This document shows, one piece after another, positions 3,436-64,000 of a stretch of DNA of 64,000 nt. This DNA is from Candidatus Latescibacterota bacterium. GTDB taxonomy: Bacteria > Latescibacterota > UBA2968 > GCA-2709665. The stretch covers positions 704,001 to 768,000 of the forward strand of contig CBDCOX010000002.1 of NCBI GenBank assembly GCA_965219995.1, given 5' to 3'. The notes under the pieces were generated by a model. It saw only the letters and a program-made list of their open reading frames with translations. It searched no databases and had not been told where the DNA came from. Each line of letters starts with the position of its first letter. The stretch's first letter is position 1. The translations under genes and the position numbers were made by a program.

Positions 3436-3825
3436 ATGAAGAAACGGGCGATCGGAAAATTCCAGAGTTTCGTTCTCGAGTCAGACGACACGGTCGTGCT
3501 GATGGGTAACCTGAAGGCCCACGCGGACTTCCTGACACGTCTCGGATTCATCCGGCACCCCGAGACCGGGGAGTTTGTCGGAACGGGCGCCAATCTTTAC
3601 GCCATGGCGCCAGACGATTTCTACGATCGGTTCAGTGCACGGACGGGCGCGGACCCGGAACTGACCGCGCAGGCCCACGACGGCGAGGATTTCTACCAGA
3701 TCGATGGACTGCCGCTGGCCGCGGCCCGTGCCGACGGCAAACCGTATATTGAGGCGATTACAGCCGTGGATATCGAGACCCGGGTGTATATCGAGCAGGG
3801 AGTGGCGAACTTCAGGGTGGGGTAG
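3436..3825 (+). CDS. Hypothetical protein (129 aa)
   Basis: Protein-like composition and GC3-biased codons; fills the gap between thrC and convergent hpnE; no motif recognised. Confidence 0.65.
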   Translation: MKKRAIGKFQSFVLESDDTVVLMGNLKAHADFLTRLGFIRHPETGEFVGTGANLYAMAPDDFYDRFSARTGADPELTAQAHDGEDFYQIDGLPLAAARADGKPYIEAITAVDIETRVYIEQGVANFRVG

Positions 3826-3836
3826 GCACAACCATG

Positions 3837-5162
3837 TTACGCATTCAGGTACTCGAGCGCGAGCGCTGCCGCCCGGTAACCGCTGTCCACCGCGCTTTCG
3901 ACGGTGGCCGGCAGACCGGTGTCGGTCCAGTCTCCTGCAATGTAGAGTCCGGGGGCGGTCGTGCGGTTGGGCGGTGGTGACTGGCCGCCGGGAAGGGCGA
4001 AAGTCGCATGTCGTTCCCGAACAACCAGATGGTGCTCCAGCGGATTCTGTCTCGTTGCGGGCAGAACGTCATGCAGGTCCCCCAGCGCAATTTCCACAAG
4101 TCTGTCGTCCGGCTGGTCCACCAGCCGGTCTGCGGCGCTTGCAACCAGGGTTACGTGCCCCGGCGACGCTTTGTCACGACCGTCGTAGAGCATCGGTTTG
4201 TTGAATATCCAGTCCATCCGGCCCGCGAGCAGGCCGACAAAAGGCCTGTCGAGAACGGGCTCCTCGAACCAGAGATTGACCGAAAGGATTGGAGAGGGAT
4301 AGAAGCGTTTCAAGCGTGTTTTGAGATCTTCGAAGCCTTCCGGCAGGATGCGGGCAAGCGCAGGAGGGGTGATTGCGCAGATTGCGGCATCCGCCGTCAA
4401 ACCCTCGCCCGATCTCAACCGGATTTCGATCTTTCCGCCTCCGACAACGTTCAGTGCCGCGACGGCATCGCCCACGCGGCACGTGCCGCCGCGCCGCTGG
4501 ATGAATTCCCTGGCCTCGCCCGTATACATCGCGCTGAGTCCGACGCCCGCATAGCCCATCAGGTTCGAATCCCTCTCACCGAGAAACGCCGATCTCAGTA
4601 CGGACGTCAGGTAGCGGGCCGGGGCCGCATCCGGCTGCTGATTCAGCGCGGAGATGCACAGCGGATCCCAGAACGCACGTCGGATGGCTGGCGATTGCCT
4701 GCACGCCTCCAGCCAGTCGTTCACGGTAAGGCCCGGCGCCGTGGGCTTGCTGAGGGCCGATCTGACGTGGCGCAGCCGGAGGACGTCCCCCGTGCCAACC
4801 GGCCTGTATCGCAGAAAGCCGGCCAGCAGATTGAGAGGAGGCGGCAACCGCCGGGGAAACGAAAGGACGGCGCGCCCCGTGCCGGGGTGGACGAAGTCCA
4901 GGCGAAACTCGTCCTGAAAACACAGACGGTCACCGGTCCCGATGGTCTCCAGGAACTCCCGGGTTCGGAGGTAACAATTCATGAAGAGGTGCTGGCCGTT
5001 GTCCACCGTATCGCCCGTTGCGCGATCGGTGAACGAATAGGCCCGCCCGCCCAGACGTTTTCTGCGTTCGAACAGGCTGACGTCGCAGTTGCCGCACGCC
5101 GCGAGGCGAACACCCGCGGCGAGACCGGCAAAGCCGCCGCCGATGACGATCACATGGCTCAT
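3837..5162 (-). CDS. hpnE: Hydroxysqualene dehydroxylase (squalene-associated FAD-dependent oxidoreductase)
   Basis: GGGFAG FAD motif, LGGRAYSF, DNGQH, AGDWTDTGLPATVESAV; overlaps hpnD by 4 nt. Confidence 0.92.
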   Translation of the reverse strand: MSHVIVIGGGFAGLAAGVRLAACGNCDVSLFERRKRLGGRAYSFTDRATGDTVDNGQHLFMNCYLRTREFLETIGTGDRLCFQDEFRLDFVHPGTGRAVLSFPRRLPPPLNLLAGFLRYRPVGTGDVLRLRHVRSALSKPTAPGLTVNDWLEACRQSPAIRRAFWDPLCISALNQQPDAAPARYLTSVLRSAFLGERDSNLMGYAGVGLSAMYTGEAREFIQRRGGTCRVGDAVAALNVVGGGKIEIRLRSGEGLTADAAICAITPPALARILPEGFEDLKTRLKRFYPSPILSVNLWFEEPVLDRPFVGLLAGRMDWIFNKPMLYDGRDKASPGHVTLVASAADRLVDQPDDRLVEIALGDLHDVLPATRQNPLEHHLVVRERHATFALPGGQSPPPNRTTAPGLYIAGDWTDTGLPATVESAVDSGYRAAALALEYLNA

Positions 5163-6019
5163 GTCGGCTTCTCGCGCGTTCCAACCCGGCTGCGAAGGCA
5201 GAAATCCAGTGCGATGCCCAGCTTCTTCAGATTGTTCACGCGAATCGGGTATTCATACACGTTGTAATTGACCGCTTCGATGCGGCTGAGAAGGCGGCTG
5301 TAGATGCATCCCATGATTTCCGCCGGAAAGAGGCTTCGCCGATCTTCCTCGGGCAGACATTCCGCCGCTTTCCTGTAATAGCTCCATGCCCGCCCGCACT
5401 GGTATTTCATCAGACTGCGAAACCCGGAAGTGGAGGCCCCGGCGAAGAGGTCTCTTTCCGTGTAGTCGAATCGTCTCAGATCTTCCAGCGGCAGATAAAT
5501 GCGATCGCTCATCGCGTCGGATTTGATGTCCCGAAGGATGTTGGTGAGTTGGAGAGCGATCCCGAGGTTGACCGCGTAGTCCTGAGACGCCCGTTTGGTG
5601 TAGCCGAAGATTTCGATGCAAATGAGACCGACGATCGAGGCGACGCGGTAACAATATTCGTACAGTTCGCCGAAGGTCTGGTAGCGGTTCTTGACCAGGT
5701 CCATCTCGACGCCGTCGATCAGCTTGAGGAAGTGTTCTTTCGGGATATTGAAATGCCTGAGGGCTTTGTGAAGGTTTGCCGTAATCGGGTGTTGCGGTCT
5801 GCCGACGAAACAGGCGTGGGTCTCGGCGCGCCAGCTCGACAGATTTCGGGCTGCGGTTTCCCGGGAAGGCGCGTCGTCAACCAGGTCGTCGGTGTGACGG
5901 CTGAACGCGTACGTGGCAATGATGGCGTCGCGCTTGGTTCTGGGCAGGAATACGAACGCGTAGTAAAAGTTGCTGCGCGCCTTGCGCACGAGCGCCGAAG
6001 TGTAGGATCGGATATTCAT
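5159..6019 (-). CDS. hpnD: Presqualene diphosphate synthase
   Basis: SNFYYAF, DDLVD, YCYRVAS, LGIALQLTNILRD, RIYLP; located between hpnC and hpnE. Confidence 0.9.
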   Translation of the reverse strand: MNIRSYTSALVRKARSNFYYAFVFLPRTKRDAIIATYAFSRHTDDLVDDAPSRETAARNLSSWRAETHACFVGRPQHPITANLHKALRHFNIPKEHFLKLIDGVEMDLVKNRYQTFGELYEYCYRVASIVGLICIEIFGYTKRASQDYAVNLGIALQLTNILRDIKSDAMSDRIYLPLEDLRRFDYTERDLFAGASTSGFRSLMKYQCGRAWSYYRKAAECLPEEDRRSLFPAEIMGCIYSRLLSRIEAVNYNVYEYPIRVNNLKKLGIALDFCLRSRVGTREKPT

Positions 6020-7043: not shown

Positions 7044-7655
7044 ATGAACGAACGAACGCGCGCGTCCACACGGCCTCGGGTGATACCACCGGCAAGAGAT
7101 GACGAGAAGCAACACCAGGTCCACGTCTATTTCGGGTACGGCAAGGGGAAGACGACGTGTTGTGTGGGGTTGGCAATCCGTGTCCTGGGTGCCGGCGGGC
7201 GAGTCGCACTCGTACAATTCGACAAGGGGTACGACGGAGAAGACGAACATTACTCGGAGCGGCACGTGTTGCGGGAACTGGACGACGTCGAGTTGCATCC
7301 CACGGGATGTGAGCGCATGATGCCGGACGGGACGTTTCGATTCGGCGCGGAGCCACAGGACACTGAGGAGGCCCGGCGCGGGCTCGCCATCGCACGGCAG
7401 TTGTTGCGGGCGGGTGGGCAGGATCTGTTGATTCTGGACGAGATCCTGGCCGCAGTTGCCTATGGACTTCTGCAACGGCCGGACGTGATGGAACTTCTGG
7501 ACCTGTACGACGAGGATCGCCGGTGCGAACTCGTTCTATCGGGGCACAAGGTCTGGGACGCGCTCGTCGATCGTGTCGATCTGGCGACCGAGATGCGCAA
7601 GGTGAAGCACTACTACGCGAAGGGGGTTCCCGCAAGGAAGGGAATCGAATTCTAG
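7044..7655 (+). CDS. cobO: Cob(I)yrinic acid a,c-diamide adenosyltransferase (CobO/BtuR family)
   Basis: GYGKGKTT P-loop, VQFDKG, LILDE, TEMRKVKHYY..G..ARKGIEF C-terminus. Confidence 0.85.
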   Translation: MNERTRASTRPRVIPPARDDEKQHQVHVYFGYGKGKTTCCVGLAIRVLGAGGRVALVQFDKGYDGEDEHYSERHVLRELDDVELHPTGCERMMPDGTFRFGAEPQDTEEARRGLAIARQLLRAGGQDLLILDEILAAVAYGLLQRPDVMELLDLYDEDRRCELVLSGHKVWDALVDRVDLATEMRKVKHYYAKGVPARKGIEF

Positions 7656-7847
7656 TGTTCTGCGGGACGGCGCCCCGAGCCCCAGCCGATGTTTATGCGT
7701 TGCCGGCAACTGGTCCCTGGGGGGCTCGACGGGATGCGGGCCGCCGACGGCCTGGAGGTTTTATCTGCCAAGGGTATCGGAAAAGTGTTTGTTTCACCCC
7801 GACTGCGCGTTTATCTTGGGGCCGTTTCGAATTCTGCGTTGCGGTCC

Positions 7848-7887
7848 AAAAAAGACCCCCGGATCTATGTTCCTGAGGTCTTTTTTT
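7848..7887. terminator. Probable bidirectional intrinsic terminator between convergent cobO and vapC
   Basis: AAAAAAGACC-CCCGGA...TCCTGA-GGTCTTTTTTT imperfect stem flanked by A- and T-tracts. Confidence 0.55.
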
Positions 7888-7908
7888 AAATGGAATCAGG
7901 CGATCCGT

Positions 7909-8337
7909 TCAATCGTCGCCCGGCGCTCGAACCTCGAGGCTTTCAAAGCGGGAAAAATGCCGGCGGTCGAACGTGTAGACGGCCTTCAAGTCGCGCAACG
8001 GCATCAAGGCCGCGTTATATGCGTCTCCGAAATCCACGTTCTTGTCCACATAGTGGGAAATGGCCTCGGAGATGATATCTCGATCGTCCACGTCCAGGCC
8101 AGGCGTGTTGATAATGGCCCGAACCCTGGCCTGAATATCATGTCGCGGGAGGTTGTAGAAGGACTCCAGCGTCCAGACAATCTCGGCAATCACCAGAATC
8201 CCGGTAACCAGCACCACGTCGCCAGCCGCGGCCCGGCGCAACAGACGTTCTACCGCATCGGCCTGTTCCGGTACATCGTTGGTCAGGTAACGCAAGAATA
8301 CATTGGTATCGACGAAAACACGTTCAGGAACTGCCAT
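7909..8337 (-). CDS. vapC: Type II TA toxin, PIN-domain ribonuclease
   Basis: FVDTNVFLR, AEIVW, DFGDAY, YTFDRRHF acidic PIN motifs; overlaps the antitoxin gene. Confidence 0.88.
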   Translation of the reverse strand: MAVPERVFVDTNVFLRYLTNDVPEQADAVERLLRRAAAGDVVLVTGILVIAEIVWTLESFYNLPRHDIQARVRAIINTPGLDVDDRDIISEAISHYVDKNVDFGDAYNAALMPLRDLKAVYTFDRRHFSRFESLEVRAPGDD

Positions 8338-55741: not shown

Positions 55742-56971
55742 ATGGTCCGGCTTCTGCTCCTCCTTCCGACAACGACCTATCGCACGCACGACTTCATGGC
55801 GGCGGCTGATGCGCTCGAGGTCGCCGTGGTCGTGGGCTCAGAACGCCGGCAGGCGCTTGCCGCTGAGACACCCGGGAGCACGCTGGTACTGGATTTCGCA
55901 AGGCCGGCCGCGTCGGTCGACAGGATTGTCGCCTTTGACAGGGAATACCCGGTCCGGACGGTGGTCGGGGTAGACGACGAGACCGTCGTGCTCGCCGCGA
56001 TGGCCTGCAGGGCGCTCGGACTTCCGCACAACTCGGTGGCGTCCGTCCGTGCATCCCGATACAAACACATCATGCGCCGCATGCTTGCGGAAAAAGGCCT
56101 GCCCTCGCCCGGGTTCAGGCTTTTTTCGTGTTCGGAAAGTCCGGAAGCCGCCGCCGCGACGGCCGACTACCCGTGCGTACTGAAACCCGTGTTTCTTTCT
56201 GCCAGCCGGGGTGTGGTCCGCGCGGATGACGAGGCGGAATTCGTGGCGGCGTTCCGCCGTATTGCAAAAATGATTTCGGGGTCTGCGCACGACACGGCGG
56301 AAGGCGGAGATTGTATTCTCGCGGAAGACTACATTCCCGGCCGGGAGGTGGCGCTGGAAGGATTGCTGGTCGAGGGAGAGTTGCAGACCCTGGCGCTGTT
56401 CGACAAGCCGGATCCCCTGCGCGGTCCGTATTTCGCCGAGACGCTGTATATCACGCCCTCGCGGCTGGCCGAATGTATCCAGGCGCAGATACGTGAAACC
56501 ACGCAGCAGGCCGCACGGGCTCTAGGGCTGAGCGTAGGGCCCGTGCACGCGGAACTTCGCCTGAACCGACGCGGTATCTACGTGGTGGAAATCGCCGCGC
56601 GGTCCATCGGCGGGCTGTGTTCGCGCGTCTTGTGCTTTGACGCCGGCGCCTCGCTCGAGGAGCTGATTCTGCGCCAGGCGAGCGGGTTGCCTCCCGGCGA
56701 CTTGCGGATGGAAGACGGCGCGGGCGGCGTAATGATGCTGCCGGTGCCGAAACGGGGCGTTCTGAGGTACGTGCGGGGCACGGCAGCGTCACGGCGCGTG
56801 CCCGGTATCAGCGACGTCGCGGTCACGGTTCCTTTGGGTCGGCGTGTACTGCCGCTGCCCGAGGGAGACCGTTACCTGGGGTTCATCTTCGCACGCGCGA
56901 AGACGCCCGCGGCCGTGGAAGCGGCGCTCAGGGAGGCCGGGGGTCTGCTCGATATCGGGATTGAGGCGTAG
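55742..56971 (+). CDS. ATP-grasp ligase (L-amino acid ligase-like, with C-terminal LAL_C2-type domain)
   Basis: YPCVLKP..LSASRGV, AEDYIPGREVALEG, FDKPDPL.GPYF.ET.Y.TPS, HAELR, EIAARSIGG, YLGFIFA. Confidence 0.85.
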   Translation: MVRLLLLLPTTTYRTHDFMAAADALEVAVVVGSERRQALAAETPGSTLVLDFARPAASVDRIVAFDREYPVRTVVGVDDETVVLAAMACRALGLPHNSVASVRASRYKHIMRRMLAEKGLPSPGFRLFSCSESPEAAAATADYPCVLKPVFLSASRGVVRADDEAEFVAAFRRIAKMISGSAHDTAEGGDCILAEDYIPGREVALEGLLVEGELQTLALFDKPDPLRGPYFAETLYITPSRLAECIQAQIRETTQQAARALGLSVGPVHAELRLNRRGIYVVEIAARSIGGLCSRVLCFDAGASLEELILRQASGLPPGDLRMEDGAGGVMMLPVPKRGVLRYVRGTAASRRVPGISDVAVTVPLGRRVLPLPEGDRYLGFIFARAKTPAAVEAALREAGGLLDIGIEA

Positions 56972-57017
56972 AAAGTCCGCAAACCGGCTGTCGCTCGGGT
57001 TTTCCTCTGCGGTGCCT

Positions 57018-57056
57018 CGGATTACACAAGAGCAAACTGCTCTTCGGTGGGCTCCG
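57018..57056 (-). promoter_or_regulatory. Putative bacterial SECIS element
   Basis: Directly after the in-frame UGA: CGGA-GCC-CAC-CG-AAGAGCA-GUU-UGCUCUU-GUG-UAA-UCCG; perfect 7-bp upper stem, loop G 21 nt after the UGA. Confidence 0.7.
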
Positions 57057-58449
57057 CTCAGCAGTACCAGGGTTCGGTGAGGCGGGGAACGGGCCGGAGG
57101 GGCGGGTCGAGATCCGGAATTCGAACGGAAGTCGGTCGATCCAGCCGCGTGTCGACAGTCGAGCGGATCCGGTGAAAGATCCGGCGCCGGGTGGCGTCCC
57201 GATTCTGGAGCCGCGTGACCAACAGGGTGAGTTCGCGCTGAAGCCGGTCCAGACGGGCATCGGGATGGGTCCACGGGTACGTCAGGTCTTCGTCTGAAAA
57301 CGGCCCGACCAGGCCCCGGACGCGGGCGAGTTCCAGCAGTCTCGATCCTCGGGGAATGAGAAGCCGGATGGTCAGCTGCACCGGGGATACGTTTTCAATC
57401 AGGTCCAGTTCGGCGAGGGTATCAAGGAAACCGGCGTACTGATCCGCGGTGGTCCAGGGTGTGAAGGGGATGAACGTGGGGTTCAAGATCAGGCCGTACC
57501 GGCGGAAGAGTCGTACGACCCGGATGAAGTCGTCGGCCGTATGGCCCTTGTCCATCAGCGTGAGGACGCCGTCGTCGAGTGACTCCACGGCGGTCGTAAC
57601 AATGGCGCACCCGGTATCCCGCAGTACTGGAAGAAAACGGCGGTATTTCAGGAGGTGTTCGATCTTGACGGTAATATCGTACGTCAACTCGGGAAATCTC
57701 GCGTGGAGTTTCTGAATCAGGGGTACCGCGTGTCCGATTCCGTTGAAAAAGTCGGGATCGCCGAACGTGATGTGTGTAGCCCCGGCGTCAACCTGTTTCG
57801 CGACGTCGTCCAGTACGACGTCCGCCTGCACGATGCGGAATCTGCCGTTGTATACGGGAACCACCGGGCAATGGCGGCAAAGGTGCTTGCAGCCCCGGCT
57901 GGCCTCCGTATATCCCACGGTCTTTTCCTGTCCGGCGCCCGTGGAGAGCCGTGCGTATTTTGAAAGGTCCGGCAGACCCTTTCGGTCGGGCGGAAGAAAC
58001 TGCTGTCTGCCCAGGAAAACAACGGGTTCGGACCGGCGGTGCGGGTTCTCCGGGTTCCCCCTCAGCCTGTTGCAGAGACGGAGCAGGCCCGTTTCGAATT
58101 CCCCGCCGAGGACCGTCTGCGCGCCCAGACCGCGCAGGTATGATTCATTGACCGGCGCGTACAGACCGTAGAAGCACAGGTGGGCGCTGGCGTTCAGGCC
58201 ACGTACCTTCCCCACCAGGGGTACGGCCAGCCGCGTGGCGGTATGCATCGGGACGTAGAACGCCACCAGGTCGGCGGAACGCACGGCCTCGTGCGGAAAA
58301 CCGTCGATCGAGACGTCCGCGAGAACGACGTCCATTCCATGTGCCCGCAACCATGCGGCCGGCGATGCCAGACCGAATGGCTGACGCCCGAGTTCGTATG
58401 TCGAAACGAGTACGATCCGAAACGGAGATGTCCGGACTGTTGTTTGCAT
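57022..58449 (-). CDS. CUAEP-tail radical SAM selenoprotein (B12-binding-like N-terminus; Sec at UGA 57058-57060)
   Basis: STYELGRQPFGLAS, CKHLCRHC (CxxxCxxC), TFGDPDF; C-terminus PRLTEPWYC-TGA-GCG GAG CCC ACC GAA GAG CAG TTT GCT CTT GTG-TAA = WYCUAEPTEEQFALV*. Confidence 0.88.
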
Positions 58450-58529: not shown

Positions 58530-59114
58530 TTATTTTGAGGACTGGTAGTACGGGTTTTCGCCGTCCGCGTGCTCGGTAATGTCGAGAATCTCGTCAATTT
58601 CGGGCACGGCCTCCTTAATCAGCACCTCGACACCCTGCTTGAGTGTCACATCGACCATGCCGCAGCCCTGGCATCCGCCCCCGAACTGAATGTATGCTTT
58701 GTTGTCCTTCACGTCCACCAGAGAGATGTTGCCGCCGTGCATCGCGACGCTGGGATTGATTTTCTCGTCGATGATGTTCTGGATCTTCTCCGCGGCGGTT
58801 CCCTTAAGGTGCGGCGGCACCTTGTTGGGATTCTCGATTTTGAAGCCGCGTCCCATCAGGCTGTCCACAAAGTCCAGCGTGATGTCCTGTGCGTACGGGG
58901 CGCTTTCCGGGTCGACGTAGATATTGAATCCGTCGAATGGCGTGACCTCGTCCGCCTCCTCTTCCTGTCCGTGGGCAACAAACGCGAGGCGGTAGTTGGC
59001 CTGCAGCGGCGACACCGCTTCCGCCTTGACACGAACGCCAACGATGGCCGATTCCTGGTTCCGAATCAGGTTGACGACCTCCTTCTGCGCGGCTTCTGTA
59101 ACCGTGATGTTCAT
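58530..59114 (-). CDS. nfuA: Fe-S cluster biogenesis protein NfuA (degenerate A-type domain plus Nfu domain)
   Basis: ITVTEAA, GFKIENPN, INPSVAMHGG, GGGCQGC, TLKQGVE, DITEHADGENPYY. Confidence 0.9.
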   Translation of the reverse strand: MNITVTEAAQKEVVNLIRNQESAIVGVRVKAEAVSPLQANYRLAFVAHGQEEEADEVTPFDGFNIYVDPESAPYAQDITLDFVDSLMGRGFKIENPNKVPPHLKGTAAEKIQNIIDEKINPSVAMHGGNISLVDVKDNKAYIQFGGGCQGCGMVDVTLKQGVEVLIKEAVPEIDEILDITEHADGENPYYQSSK

Positions 59115-59154: not shown

Positions 59155-59649
59155 TCAGGATTCCAATGCCACTGTTGGCTTCGCAGGATGTTCCCGGTCG
59201 ATTTTTTCCTGGATCTTCATCAGCGCGGACAGCAGATCCTCGGGGCGGGGCGGACAGCCGGGCACATAGATATCCACCGGCAGGAACTGATCGACGCCCT
59301 GCACCAGGGTATACGTATTGAATACGCCCCCTGACGATGCACATGCGCCCATCGAAATCACCCATTTCGGATCCGGCATCTGATCGTAGATTTTCTTGAG
59401 TACCGGCATCATCTTGATCGAAATCCGTCCGGATACAATGAGCAGATCGGACTGACGGGGCGAAAACCGAACCGCTTCGGCGCCGAACCGGGCCATGTCG
59501 AAGCGCCCCGAGAGCGTGGCCATCATTTCGATGGCGCAGCAGGCCGTGCCGAACGGCATCGGCCAGAGGGATGACTTGCGCGCCCAGTTTATCATCTTGG
59601 ACAGTGTGGTCGTGATAACATTGTCCCCGAGTCCCGTCTCAAGTCCCAT
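59155..59649 (-). CDS. nuoB: NADH-quinone oxidoreductase subunit B-like Fe-S protein (stand-alone)
   Basis: [57 protein letters not shown]; all four N2-cluster Cys present. Confidence 0.92.
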
Positions 59650-60903: not shown

Positions 60904-61356
60904 CTACTCGGTGGTTACCGGCCGGCTGCTGTTTTCAAGCGCGGCCAGAAGGGTGTGCCAGGCGAGGGTTGCGCATTTGATGCGCACGGGAAATTCGCGC
61001 ACCCCGGTAAAGACGGCCAGTTTCCCGATACCGTCCGTATCGGGCGGGGACGAAACATCGCTGGTCACCAGGTCGTGGAACTTGCCGAAGAGCGACTCCG
61101 CTTCCCGCAGTGTCCGGCCCTTGACCGCGTCGGTCATCAGGGAAGCCGACGCCTTCGAAATGGCGCATCCGGCGCCCTGAAAGGCGATATCCGCGATCCG
61201 GTCGCCCTCGAATTTGACATAGACGTTCAGGTGATCGCCGCACAGCGGATTGTGACCTTCGGATTCCCTGTCCGGATCGACCATGACCCGGAAGTTCCGC
61301 GGACTCTTGTTATGGTCCAGGATGACCTGCTGGTAGAGTTCCCGTAGGTCGGACAT
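60904..61356 (-). CDS. sufU: SufU sulfur-transfer protein (NifU-like)
   Basis: LYQQVILDH..SPRN, NPLCGD, GCAISKAS, FPVRIKCA.LAWH. Confidence 0.92.
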   Translation of the reverse strand: MSDLRELYQQVILDHNKSPRNFRVMVDPDRESEGHNPLCGDHLNVYVKFEGDRIADIAFQGAGCAISKASASLMTDAVKGRTLREAESLFGKFHDLVTSDVSSPPDTDGIGKLAVFTGVREFPVRIKCATLAWHTLLAALENSSRPVTTE

Positions 61357-62636
61357 CAGCGGAATACCTCACTGGCCGTATGCAGGGCACTTACAAGCGT
61401 GTCGATGTCTTCGCGCGTATTGTAGAACGCGGTGGCCGCCCGCGTCGTTGCGGGGATGTTGAAATGGCGCATGACGGGCTGGGCGCAGTGGTGTCCGGCG
61501 CGGACCGCCACGCCCTGCTGGTCTACGATGGTGCCGACGTCGTGCGGGTGGAGGCCATCCATTACAAAGGAAATGACGCTGACCTTCTCTTCCGCCGTGC
61601 CGATGATACTCAGATCGGCAATCTCGGAAAGGGCGTCCGTAGCGTAGGCGAGCAGGTCGTTCTCGTATGCGGCGGCGGCTTCCAGGTCGACACGGTTCAG
61701 GTAGTCGATGGCGGCGCCCAGGCCGATACAACCGGCAATATGGGGCGTGCCCGCCTCGAAGCGGGCTGGAGGATCGGCATAGGTGGTCTTGTCGAATGAA
61801 ACCTCGCGAATCATCCCGCCGCCGCCCCGGTAGGGCGGCATCGAGTCCAGCAGTTCGCTTCTTCCGTACAGGACTCCGATGCCGGTCGGCCCGTAGAGCT
61901 TGTGCCCCGAAAATGCGTAAAAATCGCATCCCAGCTCCTGAACGTCCACCTTGAAGTGGGGGACCGCCTGGGCTCCGTCCAGCAGAACGGGGATTCCCCG
62001 TTCTCGTGCGAGCTCTACGATGGCGGAGACGGGATTGCGGGTGCCGAGGACGTTCGACACGTGAACGACAGCGACGAGCTTCGTGCGCTCGTTCAGCCGC
62101 CGTTCGTACTCTTCAATCAGCAACTCTCCCCGCTCGTTCATGGGAATCACGCGCATTCTTGCGCCTTTTTCCTCGCAGAGCATCTGCCACGGCACGATAT
62201 TCGAGTGGTGCTCCATGGCGGACACGAGAATTTCGTCTCCCGAATCCACGTGCTTGCGTCCGAACGTCTGCGCGACCAGATTGATGCTGTCCGTCGTACC
62301 GCCGGTGAATACGATTTCCCGGTCGTGGGCCGCGTTCAGAAACTGACGGACCTTGCCTCGCGCGCCCTCGTAGGAATCCGTTGCAACCTGGCTGAGATGA
62401 TGGACCCCGCGATGCACGTTGGCATTTGCCGCTTCGTAGAAGACTTCGAGGACGTCGAGTACATCCCTGGGCTTCTGGGTTGTCGCGGCATTGTCAAGGT
62501 AGACCAGCGGTTTACCCCGTACGGATTGACCCAGAACCGGAAAATCCCGACGGATACGGTAGGGATCGAATGGCCCCGCACGCTCGACGAGCGGGCATGA
62601 GAGCCTTTCGGCGAGGGCATGTGCGGACGGGCTCAT
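61356..62636 (-). CDS. sufS: Cysteine desulfurase SufS
   Basis: YLDNAATTQKP, NVHRGVH, EHHSNIVPW, FSGHKLYGPTGIG, RAGHHCAQP. Confidence 0.95.
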   Translation of the reverse strand: MSPSAHALAERLSCPLVERAGPFDPYRIRRDFPVLGQSVRGKPLVYLDNAATTQKPRDVLDVLEVFYEAANANVHRGVHHLSQVATDSYEGARGKVRQFLNAAHDREIVFTGGTTDSINLVAQTFGRKHVDSGDEILVSAMEHHSNIVPWQMLCEEKGARMRVIPMNERGELLIEEYERRLNERTKLVAVVHVSNVLGTRNPVSAIVELARERGIPVLLDGAQAVPHFKVDVQELGCDFYAFSGHKLYGPTGIGVLYGRSELLDSMPPYRGGGGMIREVSFDKTTYADPPARFEAGTPHIAGCIGLGAAIDYLNRVDLEAAAAYENDLLAYATDALSEIADLSIIGTAEEKVSVISFVMDGLHPHDVGTIVDQQGVAVRAGHHCAQPVMRHFNIPATTRAATAFYNTREDIDTLVSALHTASEVFR

Positions 62637-63958
62637 GGCAGATTCCCGGTGTCTCGCGCCCGTTCGAATTTTTCCATGACAATCCGTTCCAGATAGCTTC
62701 GAACGGGTTCGGGCTTGACTCTGTTCAGGATGTCGATCGCGAATGCGTGCACCAGAATACGCTGTGCCGTGCCATAATTCAACCCGCGCGAGCGCAGGTA
62801 GAAGACCGCGTTCCGGTCGAGCTGTCCGATGGTCGCACCGTGTGAGCACTTGACCTGATCGGCGTAGATTTCGAGTTGAGGCTTGGTGTTGATGTCCGCA
62901 TCGTCGGAGATGAGCAGGCTCTGGTTGCTCTGGTAGGCGTCGGTCTCCTGCGCTTTCCGGTGAACGTGAATCTTGCCGCGGAACACGCCGCTGGACCGGC
63001 CGCCGAGGATTCCCTTGTATAGTTCGTGGCTGTTGCAACTCGGTTCGGCGTGTTCGATCAGGGTATGATTGTCGATATGCTGCTCGCTGTCGGTCAGATA
63101 GAATCCGTTGACCGTGGCTTCACCGGCTTCACCGGCCAGCAGCGCGTTGACTTCGTTACGCACCAGTTTGCCGCCGAGAGAAATGGCGTGCGTTGAGAGG
63201 TCGCTCCGCGCGCCCTGCCGGCATTGCATGGTGGCGATATGAAACGCCTCCGGGCTCTCAAGTTCCAGCTTGTAGTGGTCCACCACGGCACTGTCGCCTG
63301 CGATGACTTCCGAAACGGCGTTGGTGAAATAGGCGCCGCCGCCGGTATAGGTTTCGACAATCGTGGCCTGGCTGTTTTCTTCGGCCAGGACCAGCATGCG
63401 GGGGTGCGAGATGGAAGCCGCGTCTGAAACCGATGAAACGAAAATCACGTGAATGGGCGCTTCCACGGCGGTGCCCCGAGGGATGTAAATAAAGGCGCCG
63501 TCCTGAAGGAATGCGGTATTGAGGGCGACGAAAGGACGCTCTTCGAAGGCGGCGTGCCGCGCGATATGGTCTTCAACCCATTCGGGTTCGGTTGCCAATA
63601 GCTCCGCAAGGCTACCGGCGCGTACGCCGTCGGGAAGATCTCCCGTCCGTGAGTTTTCGGCGCTGAAGAAGCCGTTGATGAAAACCAGGCGCGACGTCGC
63701 CAGATCCTCGATGGCGTCTTCCGTTTTCCAGACCCGATGTGCATCGGCGCCCGTCGACGTGCGAAACGAAGTGCGGACGAGCGATGCGACATTCGTGTGA
63801 AACCAGGCTTCGTCTCTCGTGCCCGGAAACCCGAGTTCCTCGAATCGTCTGATTGCCGACCTGCGAAGTTCGTTCAGGGGTGCCGCGGATCGGCCGTTCA
63901 GGCTCTCTTCAAGTGTGGCGAATGCCGTCAGGTAGGCGTGCATGCCCGTGTTGACCAT
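62633..63958 (-). CDS. sufD: Fe-S cluster assembly protein SufD
   Basis: P..RDEAW..T, ALNTAF, HIDNHT, KPQLEIYADQVKCSHGAT, FYLRSRG; GGAGG RBS. Confidence 0.93.
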   Translation of the reverse strand: MVNTGMHAYLTAFATLEESLNGRSAAPLNELRRSAIRRFEELGFPGTRDEAWFHTNVASLVRTSFRTSTGADAHRVWKTEDAIEDLATSRLVFINGFFSAENSRTGDLPDGVRAGSLAELLATEPEWVEDHIARHAAFEERPFVALNTAFLQDGAFIYIPRGTAVEAPIHVIFVSSVSDAASISHPRMLVLAEENSQATIVETYTGGGAYFTNAVSEVIAGDSAVVDHYKLELESPEAFHIATMQCRQGARSDLSTHAISLGGKLVRNEVNALLAGEAGEATVNGFYLTDSEQHIDNHTLIEHAEPSCNSHELYKGILGGRSSGVFRGKIHVHRKAQETDAYQSNQSLLISDDADINTKPQLEIYADQVKCSHGATIGQLDRNAVFYLRSRGLNYGTAQRILVHAFAIDILNRVKPEPVRSYLERIVMEKFERARDTGNLP

Positions 63959-64000
63959 GGTGCGGCTTCCTCCCTTAATCATCGGCGAGTCGGACCGTCG

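Follow-up and report, generated by a model that had tools for sequence, protein, structure and literature searches.

A CUAEP-tail radical SAM gene with a predicted selenocysteine codon, linked to an amino-acid ligase gene in a Candidatus Latescibacterota genome

Does a radical S-adenosylmethionine (SAM) gene of a Candidatus Latescibacterota bacterium end at an in-frame TGA, or is this codon read as selenocysteine (Sec), and what might the enzyme then do? The gene is located on the minus strand of a stretch of 64,000 nucleotides (positions 704,001 to 768,000 of contig CBDCOX010000002.1, assembly GCA_965219995.1), here called the window, whose numbering is used unless another contig or locus is named. 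The original prediction, made from the letters alone, held that the frame continues past the TGA at 57058-57060 as AEPTEEQFALV to a TAA codon. This was confirmed on the minus strand, where ...PRLTEPWYC and the TGA (57060-57058) are followed by GCG GAG CCC ACC GAA GAG CAG TTT GCT CTT GTG and TAA. The gene comprises the following features:

57022..58449, minus strand: full coding sequence of the predicted CUAEP-tail radical SAM selenoprotein, 475 amino acids from ATG 58449, with Sec as residue 464 and the stop codon TAA at 57024-57022.
57868..57891, minus strand: radical SAM cluster motif C187-x3-C191-x2-C194 (GCKHLCRHCP), identified by Pfam Radical_SAM and with all three cysteines (Cys) invariant in alignment A3.
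57058..57060, minus strand: in-frame UGA as putative Sec, forming a vicinal Cys463-Sec464 dyad, with alternation of TGA and Cys codons in homologous loci.
57025..57057, minus strand: post-UGA tail AEPTEEQFALV, 11 codons, kept in 30/30 loci of the phylum.

The gene is an ordinary, typical member of a catalogued selenoprotein family. Over its full length it matches the NCBIfam entry NF040546 ("CUAEP/CCAEP-tail radical SAM (seleno)protein") at 611 bits, where the curated cut-off is 500, which bears out the family that the original prediction had named. Profile positions 1-467 of 468 align to query residues 21-482, tail included, and the tail therefore belongs to the family model. A search of the whole genome with the same profile gave a single copy (604.5 bits) with one in-frame TGA inside the match, and Pfam PF04055 (Radical_SAM) scored 48.9 bits against a cut-off of 29.5. 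The first in-frame start is TTG 58476, an alternative start; ATG 58449 is a plausible start codon, as judged from the profile match, which begins 11 residues after it, and from the congeneric database proteins, whose 463 amino acids equal the length from this ATG to WYC. Alignment A3, which consists of 9 Sec forms (that of the window included) and all 28 Cys forms of the first scan and thus leans to Cys forms, also has E459, P460, W461, C463, C/U464, A465, E466 and P467 invariant. The protein and the NF040546 family have the same CxxxCxxC core, the same EPWYC-[U/C]-AEP tail and the same alternation of Sec and Cys, with no structural difference. From the N-terminus, the predicted architecture would be a Rossmann-like (B12-binding-like) domain, a radical SAM barrel with the CxxxCxxC motif, a linker that varies and the invariant EPWYC-U-AEP tail.

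One reading of the gene is that the UGA is a true stop, that the enzyme ends at ...EPWYC, as gene callers annotate it, and that the conservation downstream belongs to a terminator or a regulatory hairpin. The alignment of the family profile through the tail argues against it, as does the codon found at this position in homologues, where the original prediction had proposed to look for Cys codons with AEP kept after them. Across 132 distinct homologous loci from many phyla (two scans combined, with the motif in 154 of 157 loci), the UGA column contains TGA in 89, TGC in 34 and TGT in 9 loci, so that a Cys codon replaces UGA in 43 of the 132, and AEP follows in all of them. The best 80 loci in species-representative genomes, from Latescibacterota, Acidobacteriota, Methylomirabilota, Chloroflexota, Gemmatimonadota, Actinomycetes and other lineages, contain TGA (51), TGC (22) and TGT (6), with the motif unmatched in one (L111). 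Cultured carriers include Solirubrobacter taibaiensis KCTC 29222 (L215), with TGA, and Nonomuraea sp. NPDC050783 (L062), with a Cys codon. A FastTree phylogeny of 154 distinct proteins, of which 111 are Sec and 43 are Cys forms, was built from an alignment that left out dyad and tail, and it requires at least 13 changes between the two states. In Latescibacterota, the family is present in 33 of 168 genomes, and each of the 33 matches has exactly one in-frame TGA.

The codons after the UGA also evolve as coding sequence, which again speaks against a true stop. In 30/30 loci of the phylum the peptide reads AEP[TSP][EA]E[QP].. up to the second stop, where similarity among the loci ends, and the 25 residues preceding EPWYC differ freely among the same loci. 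Differences in the first four post-UGA codons are in the third position and synonymous only (GCG/GCA, GAG/GAA, CCN, ACC/ACT).

Many acidobacterial members (L065, L067, L069, L073 and others) have a longer tail of about 25 residues past AEP that ends in ..[DE]xF[VFL]; an example is AEPTRDQLVPIARAKESLRQAESFV. Where these members have TGA, the stem of the putative SECIS (see below) occupies the same site with an entirely different sequence (GGGACC/GGUCCC).

The selA, selB, selC and selD genes, whose presence in the rest of the genome the original prediction had left to be checked, were all found. The genome (5.44 Mb, 2 contigs) contains selA (558.9 bits), selB (366.8 bits), the gene of tRNA-Sec (73.4 bits) and selD (359.9 bits), all above their cut-offs. 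The genes of SelA, SelB and tRNA-Sec are located side by side (C2:1802582-1806100), and ARAGORN assigned the anticodon tca (UCA) to the tRNA. The selD gene (C2:2652925-2653848, outside the window) carries one in-frame TGA itself, and the selenophosphate synthetase of this genome is, judging from that codon, probably a selenoprotein as well. Among the 33 family-carrying genomes of the phylum, selA is present in 32.

If the UGA is to be recoded, a selenocysteine insertion sequence (SECIS) is expected downstream, and the original prediction had described one:

57028..57044, minus strand: putative SECIS upper stem-loop AAGAGCA-GUU-UGCUCUU, inside the EEQFAL codons, identified by fold and covariation.

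All helices named at the outset are present in the minimum free energy (MFE) fold of 57075-57000, namely CGGA/UCCG, CAC/GUG and AAGAGCA (57044-57038)-GUU (57037-57035)-UGCUCUU (57034-57028). The hairpin begins 14 nt downstream of the UGA, with the loop G as the 21st nucleotide past it, as described; in homologues only the upper stem is kept, and the outer helices are not conserved. According to the accessible text of a 2026 review of the prokaryotic selenoproteome (PMC13188914), bacterial SECIS elements have a loop of 3-9 nt with a G in the first two loop positions, an upper stem of 4-16 bp, a distance of 16-37 nt from the UGA and an MFE of <= -7.5 kcal/mol. The hairpin of the window falls within these bounds, with a GUU loop, a 7-bp stem, 20 nt from UGA to loop and -15.8 kcal/mol for the UGA plus 45 nt (the 17-nt hairpin by itself has -6.6 kcal/mol), so that the geometry claimed for it holds.

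The comparison of TGA and Cys forms carries the case for the hairpin. Among 68 distinct TGA homologues, 91.2% of the cells in the 6-bp upper stem (columns 23-28 against 34-39 of the alignment) are paired, a value that 0 of 500 shuffles reached, with compensatory changes on both sides in 49 cells; in 28 Cys forms, the same stem is paired in only 44.6%, which is chance level (500 of 500 shuffles reach it). Controls in which the stem was slid along the alignment were paired to 45-54% in TGA forms and 27-39% in Cys forms. The local hairpin has a mean MFE of -9.25 kcal/mol in TGA forms versus -2.14 kcal/mol in Cys forms, and hairpins at <= -7.5 kcal/mol are present in 51 of 68 versus 0 of 28. The loop G and U are invariant in 68/68 TGA forms; the Gln codon that provides the loop G is CAG in 66 and CCG in 2 of them (n = 68), and in Cys forms the codon is CAG (18), CAA (9) or CGC (1; n = 28). 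Pairing is thus high in TGA forms and at chance level in Cys forms, which means that the hairpin is present only in the forms that require it. Most unpaired cells of the TGA forms come from an acidobacterial variant, GGGACC-AGUU-GGUCCC, which by our reading of the alignment appears to be the same hairpin with its register shifted by one base.

Several results weigh against this assignment. The single-sequence fold has -24.8 kcal/mol with z = -1.86, and 10 of 200 shuffles are as good; with such a mildly unusual energy, one sequence is no proof, and it is the comparative data that supply it. The outer helices lack conservation (the CAC/GUG pairs form in 24-54 of 68 sequences per pair), and the sequence past the second stop is unrelated between genera. 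An Rfam scan of 56800-57300 at E <= 10 matched no bacterial SECIS model, the sole match being a human mRNA element hit by chance, so that the SECIS case rests on our own alignment. When the whole tail of 55 nt past the codon was folded, TGA forms (MFE -16.0 kcal/mol) and Cys forms (-14.7 kcal/mol) were not separated (Mann-Whitney p = 0.22), whereas the position-specific hairpin did separate them. The position of the hairpin near the 3' end of the gene, with a gap of 50 nt before the convergent gene, would suit a terminator behind a true stop; it decays, however, exactly where the UGA became Cys, and no T-run follows it. A true stop is therefore highly improbable.

Taken together, the alternation of Cys and TGA, the in-frame conservation of the tail, the hairpin and the Sec machinery indicate that the UGA is read as selenocysteine, and by all comparative criteria Sec is predicted at residue 464. 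SelB with Sec-tRNA(UCA) would be recruited by the downstream hairpin, Sec would be inserted at the UGA, and translation would proceed for 11 more codons to the TAA. The original prediction is upheld in its observation as well as in its interpretation. We consider it very likely that the gene 58449..57022 encodes a 475-residue NF040546 member with the UGA recoded to Sec, a judgement that covers identity and recoding only. Ordinary gene callers take the UGA as a stop and therefore cut the protein at ...WYC, with loss of Sec and tail. This truncation, too, had been foreseen, and it is evident in the database entries of close relatives: the most similar proteins, P0002 (97% identity) and P0003 (75%), end at ...EPWYC, and the Cys forms P0030 and P0081 continue through CCAEP.

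The family and its selenoprotein status are already catalogued in NCBIfam, and several relatives carry the NCBI name "CUAEP/CCAEP-tail radical SAM (seleno)protein". In the accessible part of a bioRxiv preprint by Haft (10.1101/2022.07.06.499078), the family is listed among the few selenoproteins with a CU motif and as uncharacterised. A full-text literature search for the family accession and the motif names yielded no further relevant paper besides this preprint. The review cited above treats other radical SAM selenoproteins (TIGR04167, TrsS) in its accessible text, and the accession NF040546 is absent from its main text, the supplements being outside this scope (PMC13188914). New here are the SECIS covariation analysis, the partnership with a ligase and the lineage. 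The closest record among the matches listed is a metagenome-assembled genome of Candidatus Latescibacterota (94% identity); at least 531-564 relatives are present in species-representative genomes, and 8000 of 8000 scored protein clusters had E <= 1e-20.

What the enzyme does is a question on which its neighbours and its relatives bear. The radical SAM gene is genetically linked to an amino-acid ligase. The two flanking genes are as follows:

55742..56971, plus strand: gene of an L-amino-acid-ligase-type ATP-grasp protein, convergent and a likely pathway partner (Pfam ATP-grasp_4 111, LAL_C2 51 and ATPgrasp_N 48 bits).
58530..59114, minus strand: gene of an NfuA-type Fe-S carrier, directly upstream on the same strand and last of a suf-type run.

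The nearest named relatives of the ligase are BacD and DdaF, both with low scores. The genomes of the phylum in which it is found at E <= 1e-40 (33 of 168) are exactly those that carry the radical SAM gene (4/14 families, 12/49 genera), although these genomes are kin and the counts overstate independence. By comparison of coordinates, the two genes are <= 4 kb apart in 30 of the 33 and unlinked in three (G038, G039, G040). Across phyla, the ligase is adjacent in 56 of the best 80 loci and in 75 of the 101 well-flanked loci (distinct loci with >= 2 kb of sequence to either side), in most cases directly downstream and in the same orientation. These and the following neighbour counts were obtained by tblastn with thresholds of our own choice (>= 100 bits for the ligase, >= 60 bits for other genes). 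Five genomes with a non-adjacent ligase were inspected, and two of them encode an orthologue elsewhere (E = 4e-103 and 5e-98). In two ligase-less actinobacterial loci, another carboxylate-amine ligase is encoded divergently beside the radical SAM gene: a protein of the GCS2 glutamate-cysteine-ligase family takes the place of the ligase in Nonomuraea (L062, 4156-5709(-)), and in L132 a circularly permuted ATP-grasp protein (4525-5898(-)), a thioredoxin (3691-4443(-)) and a DUF169 protein (7419-8150(+)) are encoded beside the gene.

The further genes that recur beside the radical SAM gene are particular to a lineage and tend towards iron-sulfur or redox functions. The suf-type run of the window has the order SufBD, SufS, SufU, SufT-like, Rrf2, NuoB-like and NfuA, and is closed by the radical SAM gene directly after NfuA. 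Among the well-flanked loci, an NfuA-like gene flanks the radical SAM gene in 14/101 (several phyla), a YggX-type iron-trafficking protein in 56/101 and a DUF169 protein in 16/101. Neighbours in Acidobacteriota include aconitase, G6PD, 6PGD and glucokinase, with aconitase encoded divergently upstream in both acidobacterial loci scanned. Stop-to-stop open reading frames (ORFs) in this GC-rich DNA gave clusters of shadow ORFs, and no count of aconitase is therefore given; it was confirmed by Pfam in L080 and L112 only. Neighbour clusters 1, 6 and 8 were dropped as shadow ORFs or low-complexity merges after an analysis of G + C content at third codon positions (GC3).

Such neighbours could mean that the protein is a stress or Fe-S maintenance factor and not part of a small-molecule pathway. 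It would then have Fe-S proteins as its targets or partners and might deliver sulfur or selenium or repair clusters together with NfuA and YggX, with the ATP-grasp protein modifying a protein C-terminus. The end position in the suf-type run, the NfuA-like and YggX-type flanks and the divergent aconitase would fit such a role. However, the neighbours vary by lineage and adjacency alone is weak, suf genes are present in most bacteria irrespective of the radical SAM gene, and the ATP-grasp protein has the LAL_C2 domain of ligases that act on free amino acids; we regard this role as quite improbable.

Further observations were made on genes in the vicinity. The SufS-type desulfurase ORF (61356-63038, minus strand) matches the family 2A encapsulin cargo desulfurase NF041166 with 666 bits, below the cut-off of 800; its approximately 160 extra N-terminal residues overlap the SufBD ORF (62633-63982) and may be an artefact of the first-start rule. 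The NuoB-like gene between Rrf2 and NfuA (59155-59649, minus strand; 240.8 bits, NADH-quinone oxidoreductase subunit B family) stands alone, with no further nuo genes seen beside it. The segment 54620-55729 (plus strand), which immediately precedes the ATP-grasp gene in the same orientation, encodes a DUF2953 protein together with one that resembles GerW/YtfJ (82.5 bits, below the cut-off of 116.3); both families are associated with sporulation and occur here in a phylum that does not sporulate.

Among relatives of known function, ArsL, an enzyme of arsinothricin biosynthesis that cleaves SAM at the C-gamma-S bond with release of MTA, appears from the profile comparison to be the nearest to the CUAEP radical SAM protein. 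Its profile (NF040542) ranks second among the families matched (299.8 bits, E = 3.6e-89) and aligns residues 21-414 to positions 1-405 of 423; this comparison is profile-based only. The two proteins agree in domain order, and in each the catalytic body is followed by a short tail rich in Cys. [quoted passage not shown] The As(III) held by the tail accepts the SAM-derived 3-amino-3-carboxypropyl (ACP) moiety (10.1101/2024.02.01.577332; 10.64898/2026.04.29.721666). A search of the PDB with the family profile gave one weak match (9ccb_A, 25.7 bits) and no structure of ArsL or of the family.

An AlphaFold model was built on alignment A3 with Cys substituted for Sec. It is a confident model, with a mean predicted local distance difference test score (pLDDT) of 88.4 and a predicted template modelling score (pTM) of 0.88, with a pLDDT of 54 in the linker (residues 441-450) and 69-78 in residues 451-470, the EPWYCU region. 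The original prediction had placed a Cys-Sec pair on a flexible tail: the vicinal pair stands by the comparison of Cys and Sec forms, and the flexibility remains conjectural, the pLDDT pattern of linker and tail being compatible with a tethered arm. The best structural match to the model is AprD4 (PDB 6fd2; Foldseek E = 2e-18, template modelling (TM) score 0.67), followed by the class B radical SAM proteins TsrM and OxsB (TM 0.56-0.66). In the model and in all of these, a radical SAM barrel follows an N-terminal domain of Rossmann-like fold; they differ in that sequence identity is 14-20% and none has a Cys-Sec tail. Pfam PF02310 (B12-binding) scored 16.2 bits on the N-domain against a cut-off of 32.1, and this sub-threshold score gives no clear indication that cobalamin is used.

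A redox function of the tail has to be weighed here. The Gly-Cys-Sec-Gly C-terminus of mammalian thioredoxin reductase is a mobile tail suited to redox shuttling. The Cys-Sec tail could be a redox arm of this kind, cycling between selenenylsulfide and selenol/thiol, while the enzyme performs conventional 5'-deoxyadenosyl chemistry on an organic substrate; the dyad would donate an H atom or electrons that quench the product radical, or be re-reduced by thioredoxin. What defines that mechanism is a vicinal Cys-Sec pair at the end of a tethered C-terminus, Sec and Cys interchange freely, as they do in redox selenoproteins, and neighbours elsewhere include a thioredoxin (L132), a redoxin (L112), the oxidative-stress-type YggX, aconitase and G6PD. 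Yet ArsL, the closest characterised homologue, uses its Cys tail for substrate binding and not for redox chemistry, thioredoxin is adjacent in only 3/101 well-flanked loci, and the co-inherited ligase is left without a role. We regard a redox arm as less likely than not. Other CU-motif selenoproteins are HgcA, proteins from the SAO locus and some MerT, and the pair has been argued to suit the binding of a heavy or soft atom (10.1101/2022.07.06.499078, accessible part). The adjacent Cys-Sec motif alone is what these proteins and thioredoxin reductase have in common with the protein of the window, and their folds and contexts are unrelated.

By analogy with ArsL, we tentatively favour another function, in which the Cys-Sec arm would convey a soft atom to an active site like that of ArsL, and the amino-acid product would be used by the ligase. 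The [4Fe-4S] cluster would cleave SAM, as in the homologous ArsL, and the Cys-Sec dyad on its tethered tail would deliver a metalloid or a chalcogen, for example as persulfide or perselenide, to the active site. There a carbon-heteroatom bond would form, and the resulting amino acid would pass to the co-inherited L-amino-acid ligase.

A number of results count against this proposal. The ArsL score of 299.8 bits is below the cut-off of 450. Compared with the ArsL tail RCCLKC and its three As-binding Cys, the tail C-U/C-AEP has two chalcogen residues. ArsL is found in the context of the ArsM methyltransferase and a permease (arsQML), whereas the partner here is an amino-acid ligase; a search for ArsM (NF008823) in the whole genome gave at best 63.7 bits against a cut-off of 263, outside the window, and no ars gene was noticed next to the radical SAM gene. 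In 26/101 well-flanked loci the ligase is non-adjacent, and with the query used no orthologue was found in three of the five non-adjacent genomes inspected (weak paralogues in the actinomycetes G168 and G171, no match in the small G169). The recurrent neighbours (NfuA, YggX-type, aconitase, G6PD) are of a housekeeping or redox nature and do not form a biosynthetic cluster.

A more specific version of the arm proposal, which we consider unlikely, is that the CUAEP enzyme and the ligase constitute an undescribed two-step pathway, with an ArsL-type transfer of ACP onto sulfur, selenium or a metalloid held on the Cys-Sec arm and subsequent formation of a dipeptide. The atom on the arm could be loaded from the neighbouring SufS/NfuA-type machinery, and the amino acid made, which would resemble homocysteine or selenohomocysteine or contain another heteroatom, would then be ligated.

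This study shows that a selenoprotein which gene callers cut short can be recovered correctly by reading the raw sequence. The family to which it belongs is very large and common in phyla of soil and groundwater. Should the two-step pathway be true, it would provide a new low-molecular-weight thiol or selenol, or an antimetabolite, that occurs widely across Acidobacteriota, Latescibacterota, Methylomirabilota and Chloroflexota. A testable lead on the chemistry of the family is provided by its sisterhood with ArsL, by the strict co-occurrence of radical SAM gene and ligase and by the replacement of the ligase in two actinobacterial loci.

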